Origin: a virus
Lineage: Duplodnaviria; Caudoviricetes
Length of the DNA stretch: 64,000 bases
Virus record (IMG/VR): IMGVR_UViG_3300033076_001012
Coordinates: 1 to 64,000 of that record
Reading direction: 5' to 3' (one strand)
Part shown: piece by piece, positions 9,732 through 24,133 of the stretch
Layout of the letters: every line of letters starts with the position of its first letter
How positions within the stretch are numbered: the stretch's first letter is position 1
Notes under the pieces: generated by a model
Seen by the model: only the letters and a program-made list of their open reading frames with translations
What the model was told of the DNA's origin: nothing
Databases searched by the model: none
Made by a program: the position numbers and the translations under genes

Positions 9732-11051
9732 TTAAATTTTTAGATCATTTATAGATTCAATCCAATGTACATTATCTTTAACATCTTTATCTCTTGATTT
9801 TACCCATTTTTCCTCTTGTGTATTCTTAACATATATATTAATATATAATGCTATCTTACCTTCAACAAGTCTTAAAGAACGTCCTCTACGTTGTATAGAA
9901 GGTCTTAGTTTACCTGTTCCACTATGACATATACCTAAACTACATTCCGGTACATCCATACCTTCATTTAAAGCTTTAACAGCACTTATTATACGTTTAG
10001 AACCTGAAGAAAACTCAGATAAAGAGGTTTTGCGATCATTTTGAGACATTTTAGAATGAAAAACAATACATTCATTACCAACAGCTTGAGCTATTTCATT
10101 AGCTGTTTTTACACTTTCACTAAATACTATACTTCTCCTCTCAGGAAACTTATCTAATATTTGCTTAACTAATGATATTTTATTAAAAGCATTGTAGCAC
10201 AGGTTTTTACGTTCACGCATACATCTCCAAAACTTAGAGGAATATTCAATTTTATCTCTAAATTGGGAAAGTTCCAAATCAGTTAAAGATCTAGTATATT
10301 CAGAACTAATATTTATACCGTTAATTTCACTTCTATAAATAACTCTATTTTCTGGAGTAAAAACACATATATTTTCACCACTTTTTCCTATATTCTTGAA
10401 TCTCAAATATTTAGAAGCATTTGTAAAAGCAACATATTGTCCACCTAACTGTCTTTCATAAAAAGAATAATTACTATTTATTTGATTATAGGACTTTTGT
10501 TCCTCCGATGTAAATTCTACAGGAATATTATAGATTATAAAAGGACTTATTAAACCAAGTTCTAAAGCTCTTTGTGTATTTGTTGTATGAATTATAGGAG
10601 CAACACTTTGCATAAATTGTAAAATAATTTTATCATCTGGAGGAGTAGCTGTTAAACATAATATTCTATCATAAGTATTATTTTTCAAAAAATCACTATA
10701 TTTTGCTCCCTGTATTGACCAATGTGATTCATCAATTACAACAGTATTAAAATGTTTACCAACCCATTTATAAACAGTTTGTATACATTCTATTTGTACT
10801 TTTTCTAATTCTCTAACATATCCCCAAGTAACAAATTGATTTTTCCACTCATTATCTCTAAGATTTTCTGTAGGAACTATTACCAACGAAGTTTCATTAT
10901 TATTTCTTCTGATAAATTCTCCAGCAGCAATAACACCAACTCTTGTTTTACCACAAGAAGTAGCTGCTATCCATGAACCTTTATAATTATTTTCTTTCCA
11001 TTTACTAAGAACAAGATTCTGTTCCTTAGTCTTGTTCTCATGTATTTTCAT
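9732..11051 (-). CDS. superfamily 2 DNA helicase (DExH)
   Basis: ATSCGKT, IDESH, LTAT, EGMDVP, QRRGRSLR. Confidence 0.9.
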   Translation of the reverse strand: MKIHENKTKEQNLVLSKWKENNYKGSWIAATSCGKTRVGVIAAGEFIRRNNNETSLVIVPTENLRDNEWKNQFVTWGYVRELEKVQIECIQTVYKWVGKHFNTVVIDESHWSIQGAKYSDFLKNNTYDRILCLTATPPDDKIILQFMQSVAPIIHTTNTQRALELGLISPFIIYNIPVEFTSEEQKSYNQINSNYSFYERQLGGQYVAFTNASKYLRFKNIGKSGENICVFTPENRVIYRSEINGINISSEYTRSLTDLELSQFRDKIEYSSKFWRCMRERKNLCYNAFNKISLVKQILDKFPERRSIVFSESVKTANEIAQAVGNECIVFHSKMSQNDRKTSLSEFSSGSKRIISAVKALNEGMDVPECSLGICHSGTGKLRPSIQRRGRSLRLVEGKIALYINIYVKNTQEEKWVKSRDKDVKDNVHWIESINDLKI

Positions 11052-11065
11052 AAAAATTAAGTTTA

Positions 11066-11141
11066 AATTAACGATCTACAAATAACCTTAGTAAAACTAC
11101 TTAAATATACACTGTTTTATTAAGGTTATTTGTTGTTAGCA
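11066..11141 (-). repeat. attC-like site A3 (76 bp)
   Basis: Minus strand: TGCTAAC aacaa ATAACCTTAATAAAAC ... GTTTTACTAAGGTTAT ttgtagatc GTTAATT. Confidence 0.75.
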
Positions 11142-11147
11142 ACTGTT

Positions 11148-11645
11148 TTATAATCCTGAATTTTTACTCATTATTCTTGAGTAAAAATCTGCATACATTT
11201 TAAAAAATTTATTTAATTCTGCTTTATTTTCCGTATAAAAATCTATTCTCCAGTCGTCTTCTGTAATTCCTTTTTCATTTACCACGGGTCGTGGTAAATA
11301 GGTTGAACTTGTTTTAATTTTATCAAGCTGATTTACAAGTTTTTGCCATTTATTTCTTGTAAATATGCCAGAAAAACCCGAACTTATTGTTAATAAATCA
11401 ACCTCATCAATAAGTACTTGAAACTTATCAATATTCCACTCTTCTGTCAAAAGATTAGAATTTTTTGTTATTAGCTCTTTGGGAGATACAGTAATAAATT
11501 CTCGAAGTACGGATTTGTTATGTTTGGCAATTGCCCATATCCATTCCAACATTGTCTTTGGTATTGTTAATAGTGCCACTACAATAGATAACACTAATGC
11601 AAAATTATTTGCAAATGTTGTCCATGTAATGCAGATTATTTTCAT
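11148..11645 (-). CDS. cassette membrane protein, paralogue of 14686-15153
   Basis: N-terminal hydrophobic helix; IAKHNKSVLREFITVSPKELITK aligns with INEHNKRLFTDYIKIHPADLLTK. Confidence 0.75.
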   Translation of the reverse strand: MKIICITWTTFANNFALVLSIVVALLTIPKTMLEWIWAIAKHNKSVLREFITVSPKELITKNSNLLTEEWNIDKFQVLIDEVDLLTISSGFSGIFTRNKWQKLVNQLDKIKTSSTYLPRPVVNEKGITEDDWRIDFYTENKAELNKFFKMYADFYSRIMSKNSGL

Positions 11646-11947
11646 AAAACGATTTCTAAAAGAATAAGAATGTATGCAAGATACCTCCTTATTTTTTACG
11701 TTCCTCCTATTAGTTACTCATACATAAATTACTAGTAATTATTCGATTTTCTAAAAATTTCTCTACATTTATTTTAACTATTGTTTTTAGATAATAGCCG
11801 ATTAAAAAGTAGTTAACTTAAATTTTTTAGAGAAATGATTTGGATAATCATGTTTGGATTAATCACTCTTGTTAGAGAACTGACAAATTTGGTTAAAGCT
11901 ATTAAAGAGTAGCTGTGTAGTAGATAAATTTGAGTTTATTTACTTTG

Positions 11948-11976
11948 TCCCCTGTCCACAAGTCAGGGGATTTTTT
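11948..11976 (+). terminator. terminator-like hairpin
   Basis: tcccctg/cagggga stem followed by a T run. Confidence 0.5.
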
Positions 11977-11979
11977 ATT

Positions 11980-11987
11980 TATATTTG
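11980..11987 (+). promoter_or_regulatory. Bacteroidota sigma-A -7 element (TAnnTTTG)
   Basis: TATATTTG upstream of the structured leader and the plus-strand gene at 12216. Confidence 0.6.
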
Positions 11988-12030
11988 TTATAGTATTCAT
12001 ATAGCGTTAGCTATTCTCTTGTGGTTGAAA

Positions 12031-12200
12031 GCTTGGAAATTTTCAAACAGTAAACAAGAAATAGTCCTAATGCTCACGTCAAAGCGTGGGTTTAGGCTTT
12101 TCTATTTACTGTGGGTCTTCCAAGCACCTCAATCTATAGATTAGCATTAAGGCCCACGCTGATTTTTTATAAACTATCTACATAGGGTCTTGGTAGATAC
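12031..12200 (+). ncRNA. candidate structured RNA / 5' leader with possible pseudoknot
   Basis: Nested stems gcttggaa/ttccaagc and acagtaaa/tttactgt, plus crossing pairs taatgct/agcatta and agcgtggg/cccacgct. Confidence 0.4.
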
Positions 12201-12215
12201 AAAAAACCAAACTCT

Positions 12216-12812
12216 ATGAAAAATATTTTCTTTTTATCCTTATTTCTTTATGTTTCATTTATTATTAAATCTCAAGATTTAATAACATTAAAAACAGGTG
12301 AAGAAATTGTTTGTAAAGTAACAGAAATGGGAGTAGATGAAATAAAATATAAAAAACCAGAAAGAGATATAGTATATATAATTAATAAATCAAATGTATT
12401 TATGATTAAATATGAAAACGGAACTAAAGATGTTTTCTCAGATAAAAAAACAGAAACAGTTATTTCATCTACTAACTCAATAGATATGTTTGCTAAAGGT
12501 GAAGCAGATGCTGAAAGATATTACCTTGCGAAAAATACTGGAGCTGTTGGAACATTTATAACTACTATAGCTATGGGTGGATTACCATTTGGTCTTATTC
12601 CTGCAATAGCTTGTTCATCAACCACACCTAAAATGCAGAATTTATATATACCCGATAATACATTATTAAATAATAATCTCTATATGACCGGATATAAAAG
12701 CACCGCACATTCAATAAAAAAACGTAAAATATGGGGTGCTTTTGCTGCTGGAATAGCAGTAAATTTTGCAACTGGTATTATAGCATACAGTATTATAAAA
12801 AATAAAAGATAA
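12216..12812 (+). CDS. Bacteroidota-type exported/membrane protein (moron-like)
   Basis: Signal peptide; SQDLITLKTGEEIVCKV...IKYENG..DVF domain; C-terminal hydrophobic helices; opposite strand to all neighbours. Confidence 0.75.
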   Translation: MKNIFFLSLFLYVSFIIKSQDLITLKTGEEIVCKVTEMGVDEIKYKKPERDIVYIINKSNVFMIKYENGTKDVFSDKKTETVISSTNSIDMFAKGEADAERYYLAKNTGAVGTFITTIAMGGLPFGLIPAIACSSTTPKMQNLYIPDNTLLNNNLYMTGYKSTAHSIKKRKIWGAFAAGIAVNFATGIIAYSIIKNKR

Positions 12813-13072
12813 CTGAATTACTCTATAATCTCTGTTCTATCTACCTTTAATAAATGTTTAATATTTTAATAAAGAAGGGAGATTTTCTTTTAAAATTAGA
12901 TGTGAAGAATTTTTGGATTGAACTTGCAAAAGAAATCCTAAAATTTAGCCACACAAAATCTCAAGTGAAGTTGAAGTAGTAGTCTACTTATTAAACAAAG
13001 TACAAGTATCCTGTGTTATTAAATTAGCACAAGTTTTTTTATTTAATCTCCATATTTTCTACAAGAAGTCAG

Positions 13073-13090
13073 CATAAAATAGTTGCTAAT
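13073..13090 (-). repeat. bare cassette core plus leader (ATTAGCAACTATTTTATG), attC lost
   Basis: 17/18 identical to the leaders at 13578-13595 and 13991-14008. Confidence 0.65.
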
Positions 13091-13094
13091 GATC

Positions 13095-13580
13095 TTATTT
13101 TCTCAACCATATAGACTTGTCCATACTCCAGTGAATAAAATAATACATTATTTTAAATATTTTACTTGTTAATTTTATTCTTTTCTCATTATCATAATAA
13201 AAATCCATAAAAGGATCGTCCATTGGTATTATAATAACATTACCATCACATTGTCTTAATGTTTTATTTAAGTCTAATGAATGAATCCCTTTTAAATTTT
13301 TTATTAAATAATATATTACTATTTGCATAGGTAAACTAACAAGTCCAATAAAAAACCTGTTATTAACTGTCATTTTATATGTCTTTATTAATGCTTGTAT
13401 TAATAGTTGTTTGTCAACATCTAATTCAGAATAAATTTCAGGTCTATAGATACCTATGCAATCTCTATATTTGATTGCATTTATATACATAAGTCTTAAA
13501 AATAATGTTGAGAATAAACCAATAGTCCATTCCCAATGTTTTATAAATAAAAAGTCTATTAATGAAGTTGAACTATTCAT
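13095..13580 (-). CDS. cassette membrane protein, paralogue of 14099-14581
   Basis: Two hydrophobic segments; IKYRDCIGIYRPEIY, FIGLVSLPMQI and YYFIHWS align with 14099-14581. Confidence 0.75.
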   Translation of the reverse strand: MNSSTSLIDFLFIKHWEWTIGLFSTLFLRLMYINAIKYRDCIGIYRPEIYSELDVDKQLLIQALIKTYKMTVNNRFFIGLVSLPMQIVIYYLIKNLKGIHSLDLNKTLRQCDGNVIIIPMDDPFMDFYYDNEKRIKLTSKIFKIMYYFIHWSMDKSIWLRK

Positions 13581-13595
13581 AAAATAGTTGCTAAC
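13578..13595 (-). repeat. bare cassette core plus leader (GTTAGCAACTATTTTATG), attC lost
   Basis: Identical to the 18-nt leader at 13991-14008, with no palindrome upstream. Confidence 0.7.
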
Positions 13596-13630
13596 TAGTT
13601 ATTAATGAATAAAAGCATAAATACATTTAT

Positions 13631-13993
13631 TCAAAATATCTTACTTTTATTTTTTATAAAATTATCAAGTTTAATTTTAACATCTTTAATTTTTAAAATT
13701 TCATCATTAGAATATCTTTCAGGATTTGACCATGCTTGTGCTTTATTTAAAAGCAAATACCCTAATTCATTATCTGGATAATAACTGTATATAATAGATC
13801 CAGCATCTGCCCATAATTTAGCAATGTTTATATTTGAAGTAATTACTTCTCCATTATTAGCCAATACTCTTTCAGTCTCAATAATAGCTTTAAATATGGA
13901 ATCACAAATAACTCTTCTTTTTTCAGAATTCATCATTTTATCTTTAATTAATAATATTATAAGATTAAGTATAGTCTCTCTAAACTCTTTCAT
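13631..13993 (-). CDS. cassette hypothetical protein (start reassigned to MKEFRET)
   Basis: The ORF-track extension to 14071 runs through the attC site; ATG at 13993 follows the cassette leader. Confidence 0.7.
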   Translation of the reverse strand: MKEFRETILNLIILLIKDKMMNSEKRRVICDSIFKAIIETERVLANNGEVITSNINIAKLWADAGSIIYSYYPDNELGYLLLNKAQAWSNPERYSNDEILKIKDVKIKLDNFIKNKSKIF

Positions 13994-14001
13994 AAAATAG
14001 T

Positions 14002-14093
14002 TGCTAACGGTTTGCAGATAAAATAAGTTGCCACACAAGTTAACAATAATGAGTATTGTCCAATGTGGCAATTTATTTTATGTGCTGTTATAG
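14002..14093 (-). repeat. attC-like site A2 (92 bp)
   Basis: Minus strand: CTATAAC agcac ATAAAATAAATTGCCACA ... TGTGGCAACTTATTTTAT ctgcaaacc GTTAGCA. Confidence 0.85.
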
Positions 14094-14098
14094 CCAGT

Positions 14099-14581
14099 TT
14101 ATGTCCTCCGCTTATCAAATATATGATATATAGATCCTTTACTTGTCCAATGTATTAACCTATAAAATAAAGGGAAAAAGAAATTGAATATTTTAAATTC
14201 TTTTTCATATTTATAATAATAGTCCTCACTTGACATTTGAGAGTCTATCAAAGTTTCCCCTATGCTTTTTCTGTAATAAAGTTTGCTTAAACTAAACCAC
14301 ATTATTATACTTATGGGTAAAGTAAATATACCAATAGGAAAAGCTAAGTGTCTACCCATATCAATAAAACCATTTATTACTTTAATATAATTTTCTCTGT
14401 CCCAATTTATTTGTCTACTGTCTGTAAGAGTGTCTATATGGTAAATGTCCTCATACCAAACACCTATGTATTTTTTATACTTTAAGTAATTCCAAAACAT
14501 ATTTGTTGTTAAAATTGTAAATAATGTAGTTATAACCCAAATAGGATATTTGTCATAAAAGTCTATGATAAAGTCTTTCAT
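14099..14581 (-). CDS. cassette membrane protein
   Basis: Bounded by GTTATAGCCA and TGGCTATAAC; two transmembrane-like segments. Confidence 0.8.
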   Translation of the reverse strand: MKDFIIDFYDKYPIWVITTLFTILTTNMFWNYLKYKKYIGVWYEDIYHIDTLTDSRQINWDRENYIKVINGFIDMGRHLAFPIGIFTLPISIIMWFSLSKLYYRKSIGETLIDSQMSSEDYYYKYEKEFKIFNFFFPLFYRLIHWTSKGSIYHIFDKRRT

Positions 14582-14588
14582 AAATTGG

Positions 14589-14680
14589 CTATAACGGTTT
14601 GCCGACTTGCCCAGTGCCGCATAACATAGTGTTAAAATTTATCTGTCAATATGCGGCATTGGGTAAGACCGCTGTTAGCA
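14589..14680 (-). repeat. attC-like site A1 (92 bp)
   Basis: Minus strand: TGCTAAC agcgg TCTTACCCAATGCCGCATA ... TATGCGGCACTGGGCAAGT cggcaaacc GTTATAG. Confidence 0.85.
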
Positions 14681-14685
14681 GTTGT

Positions 14686-15153
14686 TTATGTCCACCACCA
14701 AAATACACCATCTTTCCACTTAACAAAGTCCCACAAAGCATTACTTAATCTGTCTATTTGCTTAATGTCCCCTGTTTCATCTTTAAAACTAGTCTTTGGA
14801 TCTGTTGTCCACCAATTTGAATCTAAATTATCTCTTATTTCCTTGACTTCTTGCCCAATTTTTAGTAATTTACTATAATAGTAATTAGCAAAGTAAATTC
14901 CTCTTGCTTTAATTTCTTGTTGTCTACAATACTCAAGATTGTCAAGAAGCTCAACTACTTTTTCAAAATTATATTTGTCGTCAGAGAAATTTATAAAAAG
15001 TCCACGCTTTGTTAAGAGGTCTGCTGGATGTATTTTTATATAGTCCGTAAAAAGTCTTTTGTTATGTTCATTTATTGTCATTAAAATTTTAATTATAGGA
15101 ACAGTCCCAATAAGTCCTGATATTATTACCCAATGTTTTATGATAAATTGCAT
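14686..15153 (-). CDS. cassette membrane protein
   Basis: Bounded by GTTAGCAGTT and AACTGCTAAC; N-terminal transmembrane helix. Confidence 0.8.
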   Translation of the reverse strand: MQFIIKHWVIISGLIGTVPIIKILMTINEHNKRLFTDYIKIHPADLLTKRGLFINFSDDKYNFEKVVELLDNLEYCRQQEIKARGIYFANYYYSKLLKIGQEVKEIRDNLDSNWWTTDPKTSFKDETGDIKQIDRLSNALWDFVKWKDGVFWWWT

Positions 15154-15171
15154 GATAAATAACTGCTAACT

Positions 15172-15209: not shown

Positions 15210-16004
15210 TTAAAATAAAGACATTTGTCCTACTTTCTCTATATCATTTATCCACTTTCTTGCCTCAGATATATAATAAGAGTAATCTATATCATATTCA
15301 TTAAAATCATTAACATAAAAATACTTATTGAAGTAAGTAACTTTCCAATCTTTTCTATTTTTTTCAGGGGCTTCAACATGGGAAATTGTTCCATCCTCGT
15401 ATATTTTATATAGCCAATATCCTTTATTAGATATGTAATATCTAACTGTCTTAGATAATTTTTCTTTAAACAATTGTCCATTTTTAATAGAATGTAATTC
15501 ATATCTTGATGCACCCTTTACTCCTGACTTTTTAGCTCTAACACCTGCACAAAAATCATAAATATTTTGATGATTTTTAATAGTATCTTCTATATTTTTG
15601 TTGTTAACAAAATATTCATATACTGCCAATGGTATTATAGCATGAGATTTATTTTTATGTAAAGGTATATCCTTAAATTCAAATTTACCTTTAGTTTTTG
15701 TTTTACCATTTGTATATATTGCAATATAGTTATTGCAATCTGCTATTATCATTTTCTGATAATCTACAAACTCCATTTCTATTTTATACAATTTTTCATA
15801 TTTCTTACATATAGAATAATATAATTCTTCATACTTTTTAGGTATAAGAACTTCACCACCATCAGTATTTAACATTATAAGTTTACTATCAGGTATGGAT
15901 TCTAATATATCTTCAAAAACCATTGATAATAATAGCTGACCATTTATACATATAGCAAGTGTAACTTTTCTATCTTTTAAAAAACTATATTTATCATTAC
16001 TTAA
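15210..16004 (-). CDS. polB: family B DNA polymerase, exon 2
   Basis: Resumes LSNDKYSFLKDRKVTLAICINGQLLLSMVFE after the intron; contains motif C LNTDGG and DCNNY; 795 nt in frame. Confidence 0.9.
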   Translation of the reverse strand, partial: LSNDKYSFLKDRKVTLAICINGQLLLSMVFEDILESIPDSKLIMLNTDGGEVLIPKKYEELYYSICKKYEKLYKIEMEFVDYQKMIIADCNNYIAIYTNGKTKTKGKFEFKDIPLHKNKSHAIIPLAVYEYFVNNKNIEDTIKNHQNIYDFCAGVRAKKSGVKGASRYELHSIKNGQLFKEKLSKTVRYYISNKGYWLYKIYEDGTISHVEAPEKNRKDWKVTYFNKYFYVNDFNEYDIDYSYYISEARKWINDIEKVGQMSLF

Positions 16005-17141
16005 CGTTTTGTTATCTATAAGGCTTTTTATCCCTATATTCTTTAAATTTTATTCTCTAAAGTCCAGCATATATTTTCATCCATAAACGGATGGTGGATA
16101 CTCGTGATTGGATTATATTTATTCACCAACTATGCGTTACACTACTTTTAAACCTTTCGCAATTTTAAAAGTTAGCACGGTATTAGCATTTCAGCCTTCA
16201 CCGTTTTTACCCACTAATAATCTTAAACATTACTATTTAAGACGGCTCAAAATATTTAAAAACTAAACCTTTATACGGTTTACTATTTCTACAAGATTGA
16301 AAAATATTAGGAAGTTTTAATTCTTTTCCAGATTTACTTCTAAATAAAGAAGTATTGTTCCATATTTCAGAGTTTTCTGTTTTTGATAATCTAACTATTT
16401 CTTGTGCATCTGAATACACTCCCAAAAGTATGTTGTTATGATATACAGAAATTTTTTTCCTAAGTTCTTTAAAGCGAGATCTTCTTTTCAAAAGACCTGT
16501 TTCTGACATAATTCTATCAGCATTTTTTAATTTTTCAATATGTTCATTACTCAATTTCTTACCTTTATTCCAAGGAACAGATTTCATATAATGATTTACT
16601 ATATTTATATACTTTTTTGGTATATCTTGATATAATATATCATTATTTTTTAATCTATAATAATAAGAAATTGCAGTGTTTATAGTTTCTTTAAATGTTT
16701 TAGATCTTCTGCTAAAAACTTCTTTATTTGTAATAATTGGAGGTCTAAAGGAATATATATTTATATTATAACCTCTTTTGTTAAAAGGTTTATAAATATC
16801 AAAAGCTCTTTGTTCCCATTTTAAAACATTATCACATACTAACATTATTCTAAAATAAAATTTATCTGCTCCATATTTATTATACGCATTTTGTAAATAT
16901 TTATTTTCGTGAGAATTCTTTTTTAAACCATTAATGTGAAACATTAATCTATTTTTAAAAGATTTGTTAGTAGATCCTATATAAACTTTTTTAGTAATGG
17001 TATTTACTATTGCATAAACACCTTTTTTGTTTAGTTTTTCTAAATCTCTAATGTAAATTGTCATATTAAATATATTAAGATTGTACTCAATACATCTAAG
17101 ATAAGTATTTTTGCTTAGAAATCCAAATATTTTTTTAGTTA
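16005..17141 (-). ncRNA. group I self-splicing intron in polB
   Basis: The 5' exon ends in U (TATGGT) and the intron ends in G (aacaaaacG). Core elements AAACGGTGAAGGC...GCTAATACCGTG and P7-like GCATA/TATGC lie downstream of the endonuclease ORF. Removal restores KILLNSSYG-LSND. Confidence 0.85.
16237..17064 (-). CDS. GIY-YIG homing endonuclease (intron-encoded)
   Basis: GVYAIVNTITKKVYIGST, R...H, and a NUMOD-like PWNKGKKLS..HIEKL segment. Confidence 0.9.
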   Translation of the reverse strand: MTIYIRDLEKLNKKGVYAIVNTITKKVYIGSTNKSFKNRLMFHINGLKKNSHENKYLQNAYNKYGADKFYFRIMLVCDNVLKWEQRAFDIYKPFNKRGYNINIYSFRPPIITNKEVFSRRSKTFKETINTAISYYYRLKNNDILYQDIPKKYINIVNHYMKSVPWNKGKKLSNEHIEKLKNADRIMSETGLLKRRSRFKELRKKISVYHNNILLGVYSDAQEIVRLSKTENSEIWNNTSLFRSKSGKELKLPNIFQSCRNSKPYKGLVFKYFEPS

Positions 17142-18239
17142 ACCATAACTACTATTAAGCAAAATTTTTAAAATATAATTTCTTGGATCAGATTTTGGTA
17201 TAGACTTTCTTTCATTAAAGAATCCTTCATATAAATTTAAAAAAACATCCTTTGGTAAATGTTCTGCACAAATATTATTTCTTATAGCAAGATTTGGATA
17301 CCATGATACAAAATCTAAAGATTTTATAATATATTTTTCATCACTTTCAATAATTGCATTATTTGGTGAAGCATGTACACCGCCCAAACCATAAACTATA
17401 TCTATACCTGAATGTTTTATTATAAATTCAGGTTTACTTGTTTCAGTTATTATCAAATCTTCATAAGATTTTTTGAGAAGTTGAAATTTTTGAGTTTTAA
17501 AATTAACATATGGAAATATTATATCTTTTACACTAACAATATCTCTTTTAGTACCCATACTTCTTAGATCAGATTCACTTATACCCATAGCTCTACTAAG
17601 ATATTTACTAAATAATCTTTTCGCTAAATCAGGTTCTGTACAATTCAATAAGTTTATACCTTCTCTATCTGTTAATTTCTTTCTAAGATCTATTTCATGG
17701 TAATACTTTTGATAAAGACTTTTTGTAGCTAAAACATCATTTAAATTGTAAGATAAAACCATTTCTTCCCAATTATCACCTTCTCCCTGAGATGGTATAT
17801 CCTCAATATTTGGAAAATCCGTTTGAAATTCACACCATTTTAATCCAACTCTTTTAGCCTTAGTACTTAAACTCAAAGCTCTAAATAAGTCTAAATGTGG
17901 TATTTTAAGTTTCCATTCAGGAACATCTGATTTTCTATCCTCTGAAGTTATAATTTGAGCGTAATTTCTTATTTCTTCAACCGTACATTTAGGATAACGA
18001 AACATATATTCTAATATTTGAGAATCAAAGTGTAAACAATTATAACCTATTAGTCCAGAAACTTCATTTTCTAAAAATGTAAACATTTCTAATCTTTCAT
18101 CTTTTAATGAACTAATCACAAATATCTTTTTATCATCACTATCTCTATCTACAAAAGTAGCTGTAAAAATATTCAATGTTTCTAAATCATATATCCAAAC
18201 CTTTTTATACATTTTTTTTAATTTAGTTATATTTTTCAT
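17142..18239 (-). CDS. polB: family B DNA polymerase, exon 1 (3'-5' exonuclease plus palm motifs A and B)
   Basis: YDLE, GYNCLHFD, YNLNDV, YGLGGVH, DFVSWYPN, KILLNSSYG. Confidence 0.9.
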
Positions 18240-18659: not shown

Positions 18660-18674
18660 GGCATTAAAACGACC

Positions 18675-19000
18675 GCATAACAGCAAATAGGATCAATAAA
18701 TTAATTTTATTCGTAGTTCATTTTGTAATTCAATCAAAGTATCTACTGTAAAATTATGTCCTCCACTTAACCACTTAGTAATAACAGAGGGTTGTTGTTT
18801 CATTTTTAATGCTAATTCTTTTTTACCTATCTTATTTTTTGCCATTCCTTCACTAATCTTCTTAGCAATAGTCATTTTTGCTAAAGTTTTTTCATAAGCA
18901 ACTTTATCTTTTATTTTAAAAAAATCGTCTAATATTTTGCTCTCGTGTTTTTTCATTTGTATAAAATTAATTTACTAAGCCTATTTGCAAACCGTTAGCG
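18675..19000 (+). repeat. attC-like site B2 (326 bp) with a gene in its loop
   Basis: GCATAAC agcaa ATAGG..TAAATTAATTTTA ... TAAAATTAATTTA..CCTAT ttgcaaacc GTTAGCG. Confidence 0.8.
18693..18956 (-). CDS. XRE/HigA-like HTH protein (orphan antitoxin-like) inside the B2 loop
   Basis: KKELALKMKQQPSVITKWLSGGHNFTVDTLIEL is an XRE-type HTH pattern. Confidence 0.8.
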   Translation of the reverse strand: MKKHESKILDDFFKIKDKVAYEKTLAKMTIAKKISEGMAKNKIGKKELALKMKQQPSVITKWLSGGHNFTVDTLIELQNELRIKLIY

Positions 19001-19125
19001 GTCATTGCCTAAAATTTCTGAATATTGTATGTTATTGCCATTATTATCGGATGAAGCCAAATACTGCTTACCTGCTAATTTAAAAGGTTGTCCTAAATAA
19101 ATTTCAGGCAACGCCACTTCGTTAC

Positions 19126-20090: not shown

Positions 20091-20118
20091 GTAACCCTAT
20101 CGGGTCGCTATCGCTTAC

Positions 20119-20391
20119 TTATAACAGCAAATAGGCTCAAGTTTTTAAACTATTAAGCCGTTTCTGCTCCTCAATTCTAAACATTTCGTAAAGCTCCTCA
20201 ATAGTCTTATACTCACAAGTAATATTTGACCAATATTTGCCTACGTGTTTCGGGTGCGTTTTAAGTCGCTTTACCCATTCGTTTTTTTGTAGCCACTCCG
20301 CAAAGTTTACCGCTACCATTTTAACTGCTTCTAATATCATTTCCATTTCGTTAAAGTTTAAAAACCTAAGCCTATTTGCGTAACGTTAGCG
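20119..20391 (+). repeat. attC-like site B6 (273 bp) with a gene in its loop
   Basis: TTATAAC agcaa ATAGGCT..GTTTTTAAACT ... AGTTTAAAAAC..AGCCTAT ttgcgtaac GTTAGCG. Confidence 0.8.
20137..20346 (-). CDS. small hypothetical phage protein inside the B6 loop
   Basis: VNFAEWLQKNEW...YKTIEELYEMF motif; lies wholly between the attC arms. Confidence 0.7.
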   Translation of the reverse strand: MEMILEAVKMVAVNFAEWLQKNEWVKRLKTHPKHVGKYWSNITCEYKTIEELYEMFRIEEQKRLNSLKT

Positions 20392-20397
20392 GCAACC

Positions 20398-20643
20398 CTA
20401 AAAAGACTGCCACACAGTTTCAGCATCTGACCAAAAGCCAAAATCAAAATCGGTAATGTCTTGGTCTTTTTGAAAGACAAACATTTTAAACGTTCCATTT
20501 TTTGACTTAATGATTTGCTTTTGAAAGCTGTAAAACTCAACAGTAAGGCACTCTTGAAATGGTGCTGAACTTGCGTCTACAAAAACTCTGTCGCCATTAG
20601 TGCTTACTCTTAATCTCTGTTCGCTTGGAATGTGTATGTTCAT
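20398..20643 (-). CDS. cassette hypothetical protein
   Basis: Bounded by GTTAGCGGC and GCCGCTAAC. Confidence 0.65.
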   Translation of the reverse strand: MNIHIPSEQRLRVSTNGDRVFVDASSAPFQECLTVEFYSFQKQIIKSKNGTFKMFVFQKDQDITDFDFGFWSDAETVWQSF

Positions 20644-20810: not shown

Positions 20811-21206
20811 CTACCATTCTCGGTCAACACCGACTTGTATGAAGTCAACACTTTCCGAATAACAACCATTTGATTCACCAAACCAACGAATATCTACATA
20901 GCCTTTTATCGTTGCTATTTTATAAAATGTCCACGTACAAGAACCCCAATCATTTGCTTCTTTTGTTCGCTTAATGTCTTCTTCCGAAGTTGGTTCATAG
21001 TTTGAAACTTCTTCTGCTTTTAAGATTGGTGTTCCAATCAAGTCGTTTAAGTCACCGTTAATATCTTCAATCGAAACACTTTCACAGCAATTTTGTCCGT
21101 GATACATTTTGTATTGTGTTCCATCATCAACGATAAAAATTAATTCATCGCCATTGTTTTTGATTTCGGTAAGTGTTTTACCTACTAAGTCTTTAAATTC
21201 TGCCAT
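20811..21206 (-). CDS. conserved phage protein (DUF7448-like) in a cassette
   Basis: MYH.Q.CCESV.IEDI.GDL..LIG.PIL.AEE...[25 protein letters not shown]; family name from recollection. Confidence 0.7.
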
Positions 21207-21653: not shown

Positions 21654-21667
21654 CGCACTTTAACTGG

Positions 21668-21740
21668 TGCTAACAGCACATACACGCTATTTTTCCACCC
21701 ACTTCCAACGCTCACAGCGTGTATCTACGATACTTTTGAA
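21668..21740 (+). repeat. terminal attC-like site B9 (distal core degenerate)
   Basis: TGCTAAC agcac ATACACGCT ... AGCGTGTAT ctacgatac followed by TTTTGAA instead of GTT. Confidence 0.7.
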
Positions 21741-21827
21741 AAATCTAACCATTGGTTTAATAATTTATCTATCTGCATATTTTAAAGTTTTTTTCAAATT
21801 CCAAAACAGATGATTTGTCATCTTTTT

Positions 21828-24006: not shown

Positions 24007-24041
24007 GTTATTAGTTTTAGAATTAGTTAATAATTAATTTG

Positions 24042-24133
24042 TGGTCAGGGTAGGACTTGAACCTACAATGCTGGTTTATACACCATTTCTGGTACAGCCT
24101 CACGTTTCAGCGTCTACATTCCGCCACCTGACC
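24042..24133 (-). tRNA. tRNA-like element, anticodon undeterminable
   Basis: Acceptor stem GGTCAGG/CCTGACC, D arm GCG-GAATGTAGA-CGC and T arm GTAGG-TTCAAGT-CCTAC are present; no canonical anticodon stem-loop. Confidence 0.6.

Follow-up and report, generated by a model that had tools for sequence, protein, structure and literature searches.

A probable integrase-less cassette cluster between polB and a helicase gene of a tailed phage, built on a site family of Bacteroidota chromosomes

INTRODUCTION

Integron cassettes are the classic bacterial route for swapping ready-made genes, and many chromosomal cassettes are now known as anti-phage defences. Clusters of attC recombination sites are also already known from virulent phages: Qi et al. 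(2023; PMC9892861) found 17 in 10,705 genomes, and five of the six phage sites tested were recombined by IntI1. Loot et al. (bioRxiv 10.1101/2022.09.11.507474) reported that cassettes insert at GWT in genomes (attG sites), giving single attC sites lacking integrases (SALIN) and small clusters of attC sites lacking integrases (CALIN). Here, we analyze a 4.1-kb block lying between polB and a superfamily 2 (SF2) helicase gene (positions 11,066 to 15,170) of IMG/VR virus record IMGVR_UViG_3300033076_001012. The window analyzed is the first 64 kb of this 89-kb record, whose completeness is 94%. We propose that the block is probably an integrase-less, integron-like cassette cluster of the CALIN type, made of sites of a family native to Bacteroidota and Chlorobi and joined into the phage at GTT.

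Another kind of phage cassette, the promoter-early stem-loop (PeSL) cassette, works via homologous recombination between promoter-bearing repeats. PeSL cassettes were reportedly described in T4-type phages by Arbiol et al. in 2010. As in those, the block holds small novel open reading frames (ORFs) in a plastic phage region, each flanked by a conserved motif and a stem-loop, but its motifs are AAC and GTT cores common to recombinase-linked bacterial arrays. No early promoter consensus joined to a stem-loop was found; a scan for sigma-70-type promoters, which does not cover Bacteroidota promoters, gave 29 sites versus 31.8 expected. The closer likeness is to the CALIN of Polaribacter phage P12002L and Tetrasphaera phage TJE1 (Qi et al. 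2023), where co-oriented attC-like sites surround small ORFs in a lytic phage without an integrase; the TJE1 cluster also lies directly past a terminator hairpin flanked by inverted GTT cores. The present phage differs from those in being crAss-like and in carrying an array on either side of polB, the two with opposite polarity; its cargo consists of membrane proteins without known function rather than methyltransferases, and several junctions are siteless. With attG insertion the block shares cassettes that lie outside any attI, are joined at GTT (which fits 5'-GWT-3') and have no integrase nearby. The attG work of Loot et al. differs in that it concerns E. coli and IntI1 to IntI3 and does not mention insertion into phage genomes, and the target here may be a hairpin (a pseudo-attC) instead of a plain duplex GWT. 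A limited literature search found no paper linking integrons to crAss-like phages and no description of the Bacteroidota sites or of the recombinase linked to them. Beyond the phage clusters of Qi et al. (2023), the present analysis adds a crAss-like genome with two intrinsically different arrays, a quantitative link to a Bacteroidota family whose sites are non-canonical and whose arrays adjoin a recombinase, and a strong orientation bias in viral contigs.

RESULTS

Three sites of a bacterial family

The block carries five minus-strand ORFs of 120 to 165 aa, and long imperfect palindromes come after the first, the second and the last of them. Read on the minus strand, the three palindromes have a common frame: TAAC, one A, a stem of 20 to 23 bp (complementarity, 83 to 95%), a loop of 16 to 28 nt, the returning stem, 5 nt and GTTA. 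The five-base spacers before GTTA are AAACC, AAACC and AGATC. The sites and the block ends are as follows; scores are those of the covariance model R1 described below.

14587-14683, minus strand: attC-like site A, TAAC-A-23 bp stem-loop-stem-AAACC-GTTA; inverted repeat I16 (R1, 41.2 bits, E 4.4e-7)
14000-14096, minus strand: attC-like site B, the best fit to the bacterial family; inverted repeat I11 (R1, 59.6 bits, E 3.7e-11)
11064-11144, minus strand: attC-like site C; inverted repeat I13 (R1, 35.9 bits, E 6.8e-6)
15208-15195 paired with 15185-15172, minus strand: perfect A+T hairpin of 14 bp immediately behind the polB stop
15161-15170, minus strand: left junction and start of cassette 1, GTTAGCAGTT, complementary to the inverse core of site A at 15 of 16 positions
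11072-11070, minus strand: right junction, the GTT of site C

The general anatomy is that of attC, with an inverse core ending in AAC, a core beginning with GTT, an imperfect inner palindrome and a variable loop, and, as in canonical integrons, structure is conserved over sequence. A loose palindrome scan proved too permissive (33 hits versus 14 in shuffles) and was replaced by the covariance model. A site pattern drawn from two phage sites was scanned over genome and IMG/VR collections, and R1 was trained exclusively on 43 non-redundant bacterial sites, with no phage sites included. In this alignment all 12 outer stem pairs covary by compensatory changes, and 91% of the cells are paired versus about 27% when the partner is slid; the 43 sites were preselected for having a stem, so that the pairing is built in, while the covariation is not.

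Run over the 64-kb window with filters off, R1 recovered sites A, B and C together with six sites of the second array (array 2), and the next match had an E value of 0.26. The opposite strand at sites A to C reached only 10 to 14 bits, and the polarity of the sites is thus that of the minus strand. Judged from their sequences, sites A to C belong to a large bacterial site family. P12002L also gave R1 matches, which are weak and lie beside methyltransferase genes. No Rfam family matched sites A to C. A BLAST search with them against about 270 fetched loci found no close copy, while array-2 sites 2c, 2g and 2h do have close copies there; searches with the block DNA for near and distant matches among 50,697 phage records gave none.

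Could the three hairpins instead be ordinary intrinsic terminators, or chance palindromes of A+T-rich DNA? The phage has other intergenic A+T hairpins, and the loose scan showed how readily chance hits arise. We find this hardly credible, since a model trained on bacterial sites matches the three with E values between 4e-11 and 7e-6, the lowest E value of the noise being 0.26, no T-run stands behind the stems, a terminator scan detects none of them, and their cores and spacers are common to hundreds of sites elsewhere.

A CALIN calls for at least two co-oriented attC sites within a few kilobases, and the block has three, membership being judged with our own R1 model and not with that of IntegronFinder. 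The tyrosine recombinase family PF00589 had zero matches across the 89-kb record at its 94% completeness; the array is thus an integrase-less, CALIN-like cluster. An earlier reading of this DNA, the first-pass annotation, had described three complete minus-strand sites with a "5/9" geometry. All three are there, and the geometry is the one given above counted from another base, as that count left the first GCA/TGC pairs and the following mismatch out of the stem. Its view that they form a real cassette array of polarity opposite to array 2 is borne out by the strand-specific R1 matches, and its cassette reading is right in kind. It had also located the ends correctly: the first core at 15170, past the A+T hairpin behind the polB stop, is GTTAGCAGTT (15170-15161), and the last site closes with GTTAATT (11072-11066) just ahead of the helicase ATG (11051), at a distance of 14 nt.

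Bacterial arrays of the family adjoin a tyrosine recombinase

The site pattern occurs in at least 120 contigs of a species-representative genome collection, nearly all of them from Bacteroidota; carriers include Crocinitomicaceae, Fluviicola, Brumimicrobium, Flavobacterium and Saprospiraceae, plus Chlorobium ferrooxidans. In Fluviicola sp. CP170456, 12 of the 13 R1 matches form one co-oriented array (1.3118 to 1.3251 Mb), the cores of which show the offset complementarity described in the next section and the ORFs of which are mostly sense to the sites. A gene for a 280-aa tyrosine recombinase (L272:4007-4849) lies upstream on the same strand; the first site that R1 detects (1,311,803) is about 5 kb away, and a weaker one before it (1,309,394) about 2.5 kb. 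The enzyme passes NF040815 ("tyrosine recombinase/integron integrase," XerA type) with 231 bits against a cut-off of 220 and fails the integron-integrase model TIGR02249 (200.7 bits; cut-off, 265), of which only positions 2-180 and 239-314 are matched. The unmatched stretch we take to be the IntI-specific insertion. The best solved relatives of the enzyme are, in order, XerA, IntI4 and XerD. An EcoRI-type adenine methylase and a GmrSD/HNH-type restriction enzyme are encoded between the recombinase and the first site (L272:4007-7274; genome positions 1306006-1309273), so that defence genes head the Fluviicola array.

The linkage is not peculiar to Fluviicola. In seven of the eight bacterial genomes examined (G001, G003, G004, G006, G008, G009 and G010), the best IntI-like recombinase is followed 0.6 to 20 kb downstream by a co-oriented array; six of these distances are no greater than 5 kb, and the eighth genome has recombinase and array on different contigs. 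As far as sequence goes, the site family is integron-like in behaviour, its integrase gene being co-oriented, but the enzyme is not a canonical IntI. The bacterial arrays resemble canonical integrons in adjoining a tyrosine recombinase, and differ in that this recombinase is XerA/Xer-like and lacks the IntI-specific insertion. Neither in the phage nor in the bacterial arrays does an IntI with the extra domain adjoin the sites, as it would in a complete integron.

Offset complementarity and the asymmetry at position 11

When cassettes are cut and joined at G|TT as circles, each cassette is left with a start complementary to the inverse core of the site that closes it. To measure this, the 16 nt ending in the AAC of each site were reverse-complemented and set against the first 16 nt of every cassette body. 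All three cassettes agree with their own downstream site at 15 of 16 positions and with the other sites at 8 to 11. Such pairing of a cassette start with its own site's inverse core is a further likeness to canonical integrons. For site C, the match at 15 of 16 positions is with the leader GTTAGCAACT, and its inverse core is the complement of the 18-nt core-leader GTTAGCAACTATTTTATG. The array-1 cores GTTAGCAGT, GTTATAGCCAAT and GTTAGCAAC are typical of the family and recur in bacterial loci and in P12002L.

The sole mismatch is always at position 11, with A in the cassette start and G in the reverse-complemented inverse core; the top strand has an A.C mismatch where the bottom strand has a G.T pair. 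In a set of 462 bacterial and viral sites, A occupies this position in 89 to 94% of the core (R') sides, while on the reverse-complemented inverse-core (R'') sides it is G in 55 to 71% and A in 6 to 8%. The asymmetry is thus a property of the whole family. Stem positions 4, 8 and 11 often have fixed mismatches across the family. The Vibrio cholerae repeat (VCR) has roughly equal unpaired spacers. The spacer and extrahelical-base layout of canonical attC is absent from our sites: the R helix, unlike the canonical one, reaches 10 + 5 bp with the fixed mismatch at position 11, and strand asymmetry comes from fixed mismatches instead. By analogy, the position-11 asymmetry may substitute for the extrahelical bases of canonical attC.

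Cassettes, lost sites and a plus-strand module

The contents of the block, in the order of its minus-strand reading, are listed below.

14686-15153, minus strand: cassette 1 ORF (c1), 155 aa, N-terminal membrane helix
14099-14581, minus strand: cassette 2 ORF (c2), 160 aa, two membrane helices
13631-13993, minus strand: third ORF (c3), 120 aa, with leader GTTAGCAACTATTTTATG upstream at 14008-13991 and a short A+T hairpin, but no site, downstream
13095-13595, minus strand: fourth ORF (c4), 161 aa, with a second copy of the 18-nt core-leader (13595-13578); direct repeat families D1/D2
13040-13090, minus strand: degenerate third core-leader copy ATTAGCAACTATTTTATG (ATTAGC...) and a 10-codon stump
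~11700-13040, plus strand: module within the body of the third cassette, between the stump and c5, with a small ORF, a hairpin, a folded stretch and two further ORFs
12854-12979, plus strand: ORF of 41 aa
12216-12812, plus strand: ORF of 198 aa with a signal peptide
11990-12215, plus strand: strongly folding stretch of 226 nt with a long imperfect hairpin (z-score, -5.2 versus shuffles)
~11945-11985, plus strand: terminator-like hairpin
11148-11645, minus strand: last ORF (c5), 165 aa, membrane helix, AGGAGG-like motifs ahead

Four of the five minus-strand ORFs begin with a hydrophobic helix. None of the five, c1 included, had a Pfam hit, and their PHROG hits were weak and to families of unknown function. 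Two pairs are distant paralogs: c1 and c5 (24% identity over 70 aa, E 1e-5) and c2 and c4 (25% over 149 aa, E 3e-11). Among 5.8 billion proteins c1 has no relative but itself; c2 has just three remote relative clusters among 1.84 billion representatives, and the one such relative with a readable contig lies on a Bacteroidota chromosome without flanking sites. A tblastn search with all cassette proteins against the approximately 270 fetched loci gave no match.

The junction upstream of c4 has no hairpin site and is read as that of a fused cassette, and the degenerate leader with its stump is the remnant of a cassette start. In our reading, c3, c4 and the stump were once cassettes and have lost their sites; loss of folded attC by slippage has been discussed by Loot et al. 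(bioRxiv 10.1101/2022.09.11.507474).

The module on the plus strand had no match in Pfam, PHROG or Rfam, the structured stretch being included in the Rfam search. The stretch at 11990-12215 may represent either an RNA element or what is left of a long palindromic site. The module contradicts the first-pass statement that all cassette-borne genes lie on the minus strand, as its ORFs at 12216-12812 and 12854-12979 and its hairpin are on the plus strand.

Viral arrays and their orientation

The pattern is found in at least 118 IMG/VR contigs, many of which hold 3 to 11 sites, and at least three co-oriented sites are present in about half of the fetched IMG/VR loci. A crAss-like relative (L019; polB 55% identical) has a three-site array 2.5 kb upstream of its polB, with offset complementarity and raised G+C. 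The orientation of inter-site ORFs relative to site polarity was surveyed in IMG/VR loci (L146 to L263) and bacterial loci (L026 to L145), with the viral status of each contig taken from IMG/VR. ORFs of viral loci were antisense in 111 cases and sense in 16, those of bacterial loci 31 and 31; in recombinase-linked chromosomal arrays they are mostly sense.

In the phage studied here, the ORFs are sense to the sites in the block (array 1) and antisense in array 2, as the first-pass annotation had observed, so that array 2 is of the common viral type and array 1 of a rare, chromosome-like one. An inversion between the two arrays is ruled out as the cause on logic, because it would flip sites and ORFs together. 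The two also differ in G+C, at 23 to 30% in array 1 versus 35 to 38% in array 2. The further proposal that arrays were retained only when co-directional with phage early transcription is compatible with the data as a correlate, in that 25 of the 33 decidable IMG/VR arrays have cassette ORFs sharing the direction of the flanking genes; the 111:16 antisense bias is left unexplained by it. That bias would place the better-folding (bottom) site strand on the coding strand of phage genes.

The viral frequencies bear on another explanation, in which hairpins and core-leader are a phage-autonomous shuffling or regulatory device comparable to the promoter and stem-loop modules of T4-type phages, acting by homologous recombination or as RNA elements, and the bacterial arrays are secondary. 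The sites are no less frequent in IMG/VR contigs than in genomes, the strand rule in viruses would suit a role on the transcript, and the leader reaches right up to the ATG. Against such a device speak the tyrosine recombinase adjoining the arrays in seven of eight bacterial genomes, the conservation of structure and not of sequence, and the offset complementarity, a product of cut-and-join at G|TT. Nor does the sigma-70 scan reported above show any excess of promoters, and array 1 itself has the minority orientation among viral arrays. We consider it very improbable.

Several features of the other arrays are recorded here. In two array-2 sites (18668-19005 and 20112-20400), a whole ORF lies between the arms, AGCAAATAGG ... 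CCTATTTGC, and the bodies before these sites measure only 29 to 42 nt. The array-2 cassette ORF at 20811-21206 (131 aa) has relatives at the DNA level (66 to 77% identical) in phages of Bacillus, Salmonella, Pseudomonas and Xanthomonas, where they are listed as hypothetical proteins; a phage gene that travels widely, it is here carried by a cassette. Five IMG/VR loci (L155, L158, L187, L188 and L230) have an array with a homolog of the Fluviicola recombinase (33 to 41% identical) alongside, its gene being divergent from the site polarity in L155 and L187. These five could represent whole platforms carried by phages or prophages, or else misfiled bacterial contigs.

The phage and the genes flanking the block

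The phage encodes a terminase large subunit, a portal protein and a major head protein and is therefore a real tailed phage. The G+C content of the window is about 26%. The closest cultured match of its polB is that of Cellulophaga phage phi14:2, which we take to be crAss-like, and the host is probably a member of the Bacteroidota. The genes flanking the 4.1-kb block are all on the minus strand.

17139-18239, minus strand: N part of polB
16237-17064, minus strand: GIY-YIG homing endonuclease gene, splitting polB
15210-15923, minus strand: C-terminal part of polB (phrog_1252 DNA polymerase, E 1e-43)
9732-11051, minus strand: SF2 helicase (Helicase_C/ResIII and phrog_16)

In most relatives the gap between the polB halves is about 100 nt and holds no endonuclease; in one (L020) polB is interrupted by an endonuclease at another position. 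A tRNA-like gene of 93 nt is present at 24041-24133 on the minus strand, for which ARAGORN gives a four-base anticodon (gagg) and no identity and the Rfam tRNA model 35 bits.

The SF2 helicase shares 24 to 27% identity with the helicases at the same position in relatives, although the polB proteins are 55 to 68% identical, and its best match (34%) is in unrelated contigs. On sequence comparison it looks like a module replacement beside the array. The helicase gene as a further cassette was ruled out, as neither a partner core nor a site lies behind it.

The ends of the block and the route of entry

The polB stop TAA (15212-15210) and the next C make TAAC at the foot of the A+T hairpin, which is followed by one A and then by the first core. 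As a member of the site family this hairpin was ruled out (R1, 11.9 bits, E 1.4). Perfect hairpins of at least 11 bp are rare (13 in the 89 kb of the phage) and mostly intergenic, and it is therefore probably a native intergenic hairpin of the phage. With its TAAC and GTT feet it could be a pseudo-site that served as the insertion target, a remark made by Qi et al. (PMC9892861) for the hairpin of TJE1. At the other end, the flank past site C (AATTTAAAC..., GTTAATTTAAAC) deviates from the extended core of the family, and cassette-type sequence thus stops at the GTT of site C. Both junctions carry the 5'-GWT-3' of attG sites (GTT at 15170-15168 and at 11072-11070) and are consistent with site-specific joining there. 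An attG-type entry at a simple GTT is plausible from these sequences; use of the native hairpin as a pseudo-site may equally have occurred.

How relatives are built at this point matters for the route. In those with polB 55 to 68% identical, the next gene, a helicase or one extra ORF, begins at the polB stop or a few bases from it, and the interval from polB to the helicase gene is 0, 0.7, 1.9 or 2.5 kb. Genuine cassettes could also have arrived together as one block, through recombination, homologous or illegitimate, with a host array or another phage, that is, by ordinary phage mosaicism. The varying content of the interval would suit this, as would a helicase at about 25% identity beside a polB at 55 to 68% and a DnaB-like gene at about 60% in the closer relatives (polB up to 68%), a pattern of module exchange at the locus. 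When L019 is set against the locus L018, the difference is a hypervariable stretch and not a clean insertion, and the three 18-nt leader copies could drive homologous exchange. In addition, the last array-2 site (21665-21742) has both arms and no GTT, and that of the L019 array (L019:5950-6000) is cut off past the first arm. With last sites incomplete, neither array ends at a recombination point, G|TT. Array 1 is different: both of its ends are exactly at GTT, its 3' site is complete and the flank is not of the family, none of which would be expected of random breakpoints. We judge arrival by mosaicism unlikely, though the strongest of the alternatives.

Under the cassette-cluster reading that we prefer, events would have run as follows. 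Infection of a platform-bearing host would bring the phage DNA together with the host recombinase, which would act on single-stranded folded sites, and one or more cassette circles would be joined into the phage at GTT beside the post-polB hairpin. Some inter-cassette sites would afterwards be lost, leaving three hairpin-less copies of the 18-nt core-leader; the plus-strand module would be inserted, and composition would drift toward that of the phage (23 to 30% G+C). The minus-strand ORFs would be transcribed by read-through from phage replication-gene transcripts.

Several observations weigh against this reading. No empty site was found, as searches of IMG/VR with polB and helicase and of metagenome contigs with helicase gave distant relatives only. 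The apparent exchange of the neighbouring helicase means that the block may have come by ordinary phage mosaicism. The cassettes are phage-like in composition and without relatives in bacterial arrays, and a site is kept at just three of about six junctions. The spacers of sites A to C and of the bacterial family are asymmetric (1 nt and 5 nt), unlike those of canonical attC. Finally, the recombinase beside the bacterial arrays lacks the IntI-specific domain, and for this reason the label "integron" is an analogy.

DISCUSSION

To our knowledge, the standard integron definition would not count the linked recombinase as an integrase. Taken further, the sites may mark an integron-like system of Bacteroidota and Chlorobi for which the limited literature search gave no description, with a Xer/XerA-like recombinase without the IntI domain and with cassettes shared on a large scale with phages, in which array 1 would be a rare "chromosome-type" block in a crAss-like phage. 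We put this forward tentatively, with more doubt than confidence.

If it is true, phage and host trade genes through one site-specific cassette pool, and there would be a concrete site-specific mechanism for the turnover of phage accessory genes beside the replication genes. The finding points to a large, little-studied site family, for which sites A, B and C and the candidate recombinases form a testable set. If lytic Bacteroidota phages, crAss-like ones among them, do carry arrays built with the sites of their hosts' chromosomal arrays, they would both draw on and feed a common cassette pool.

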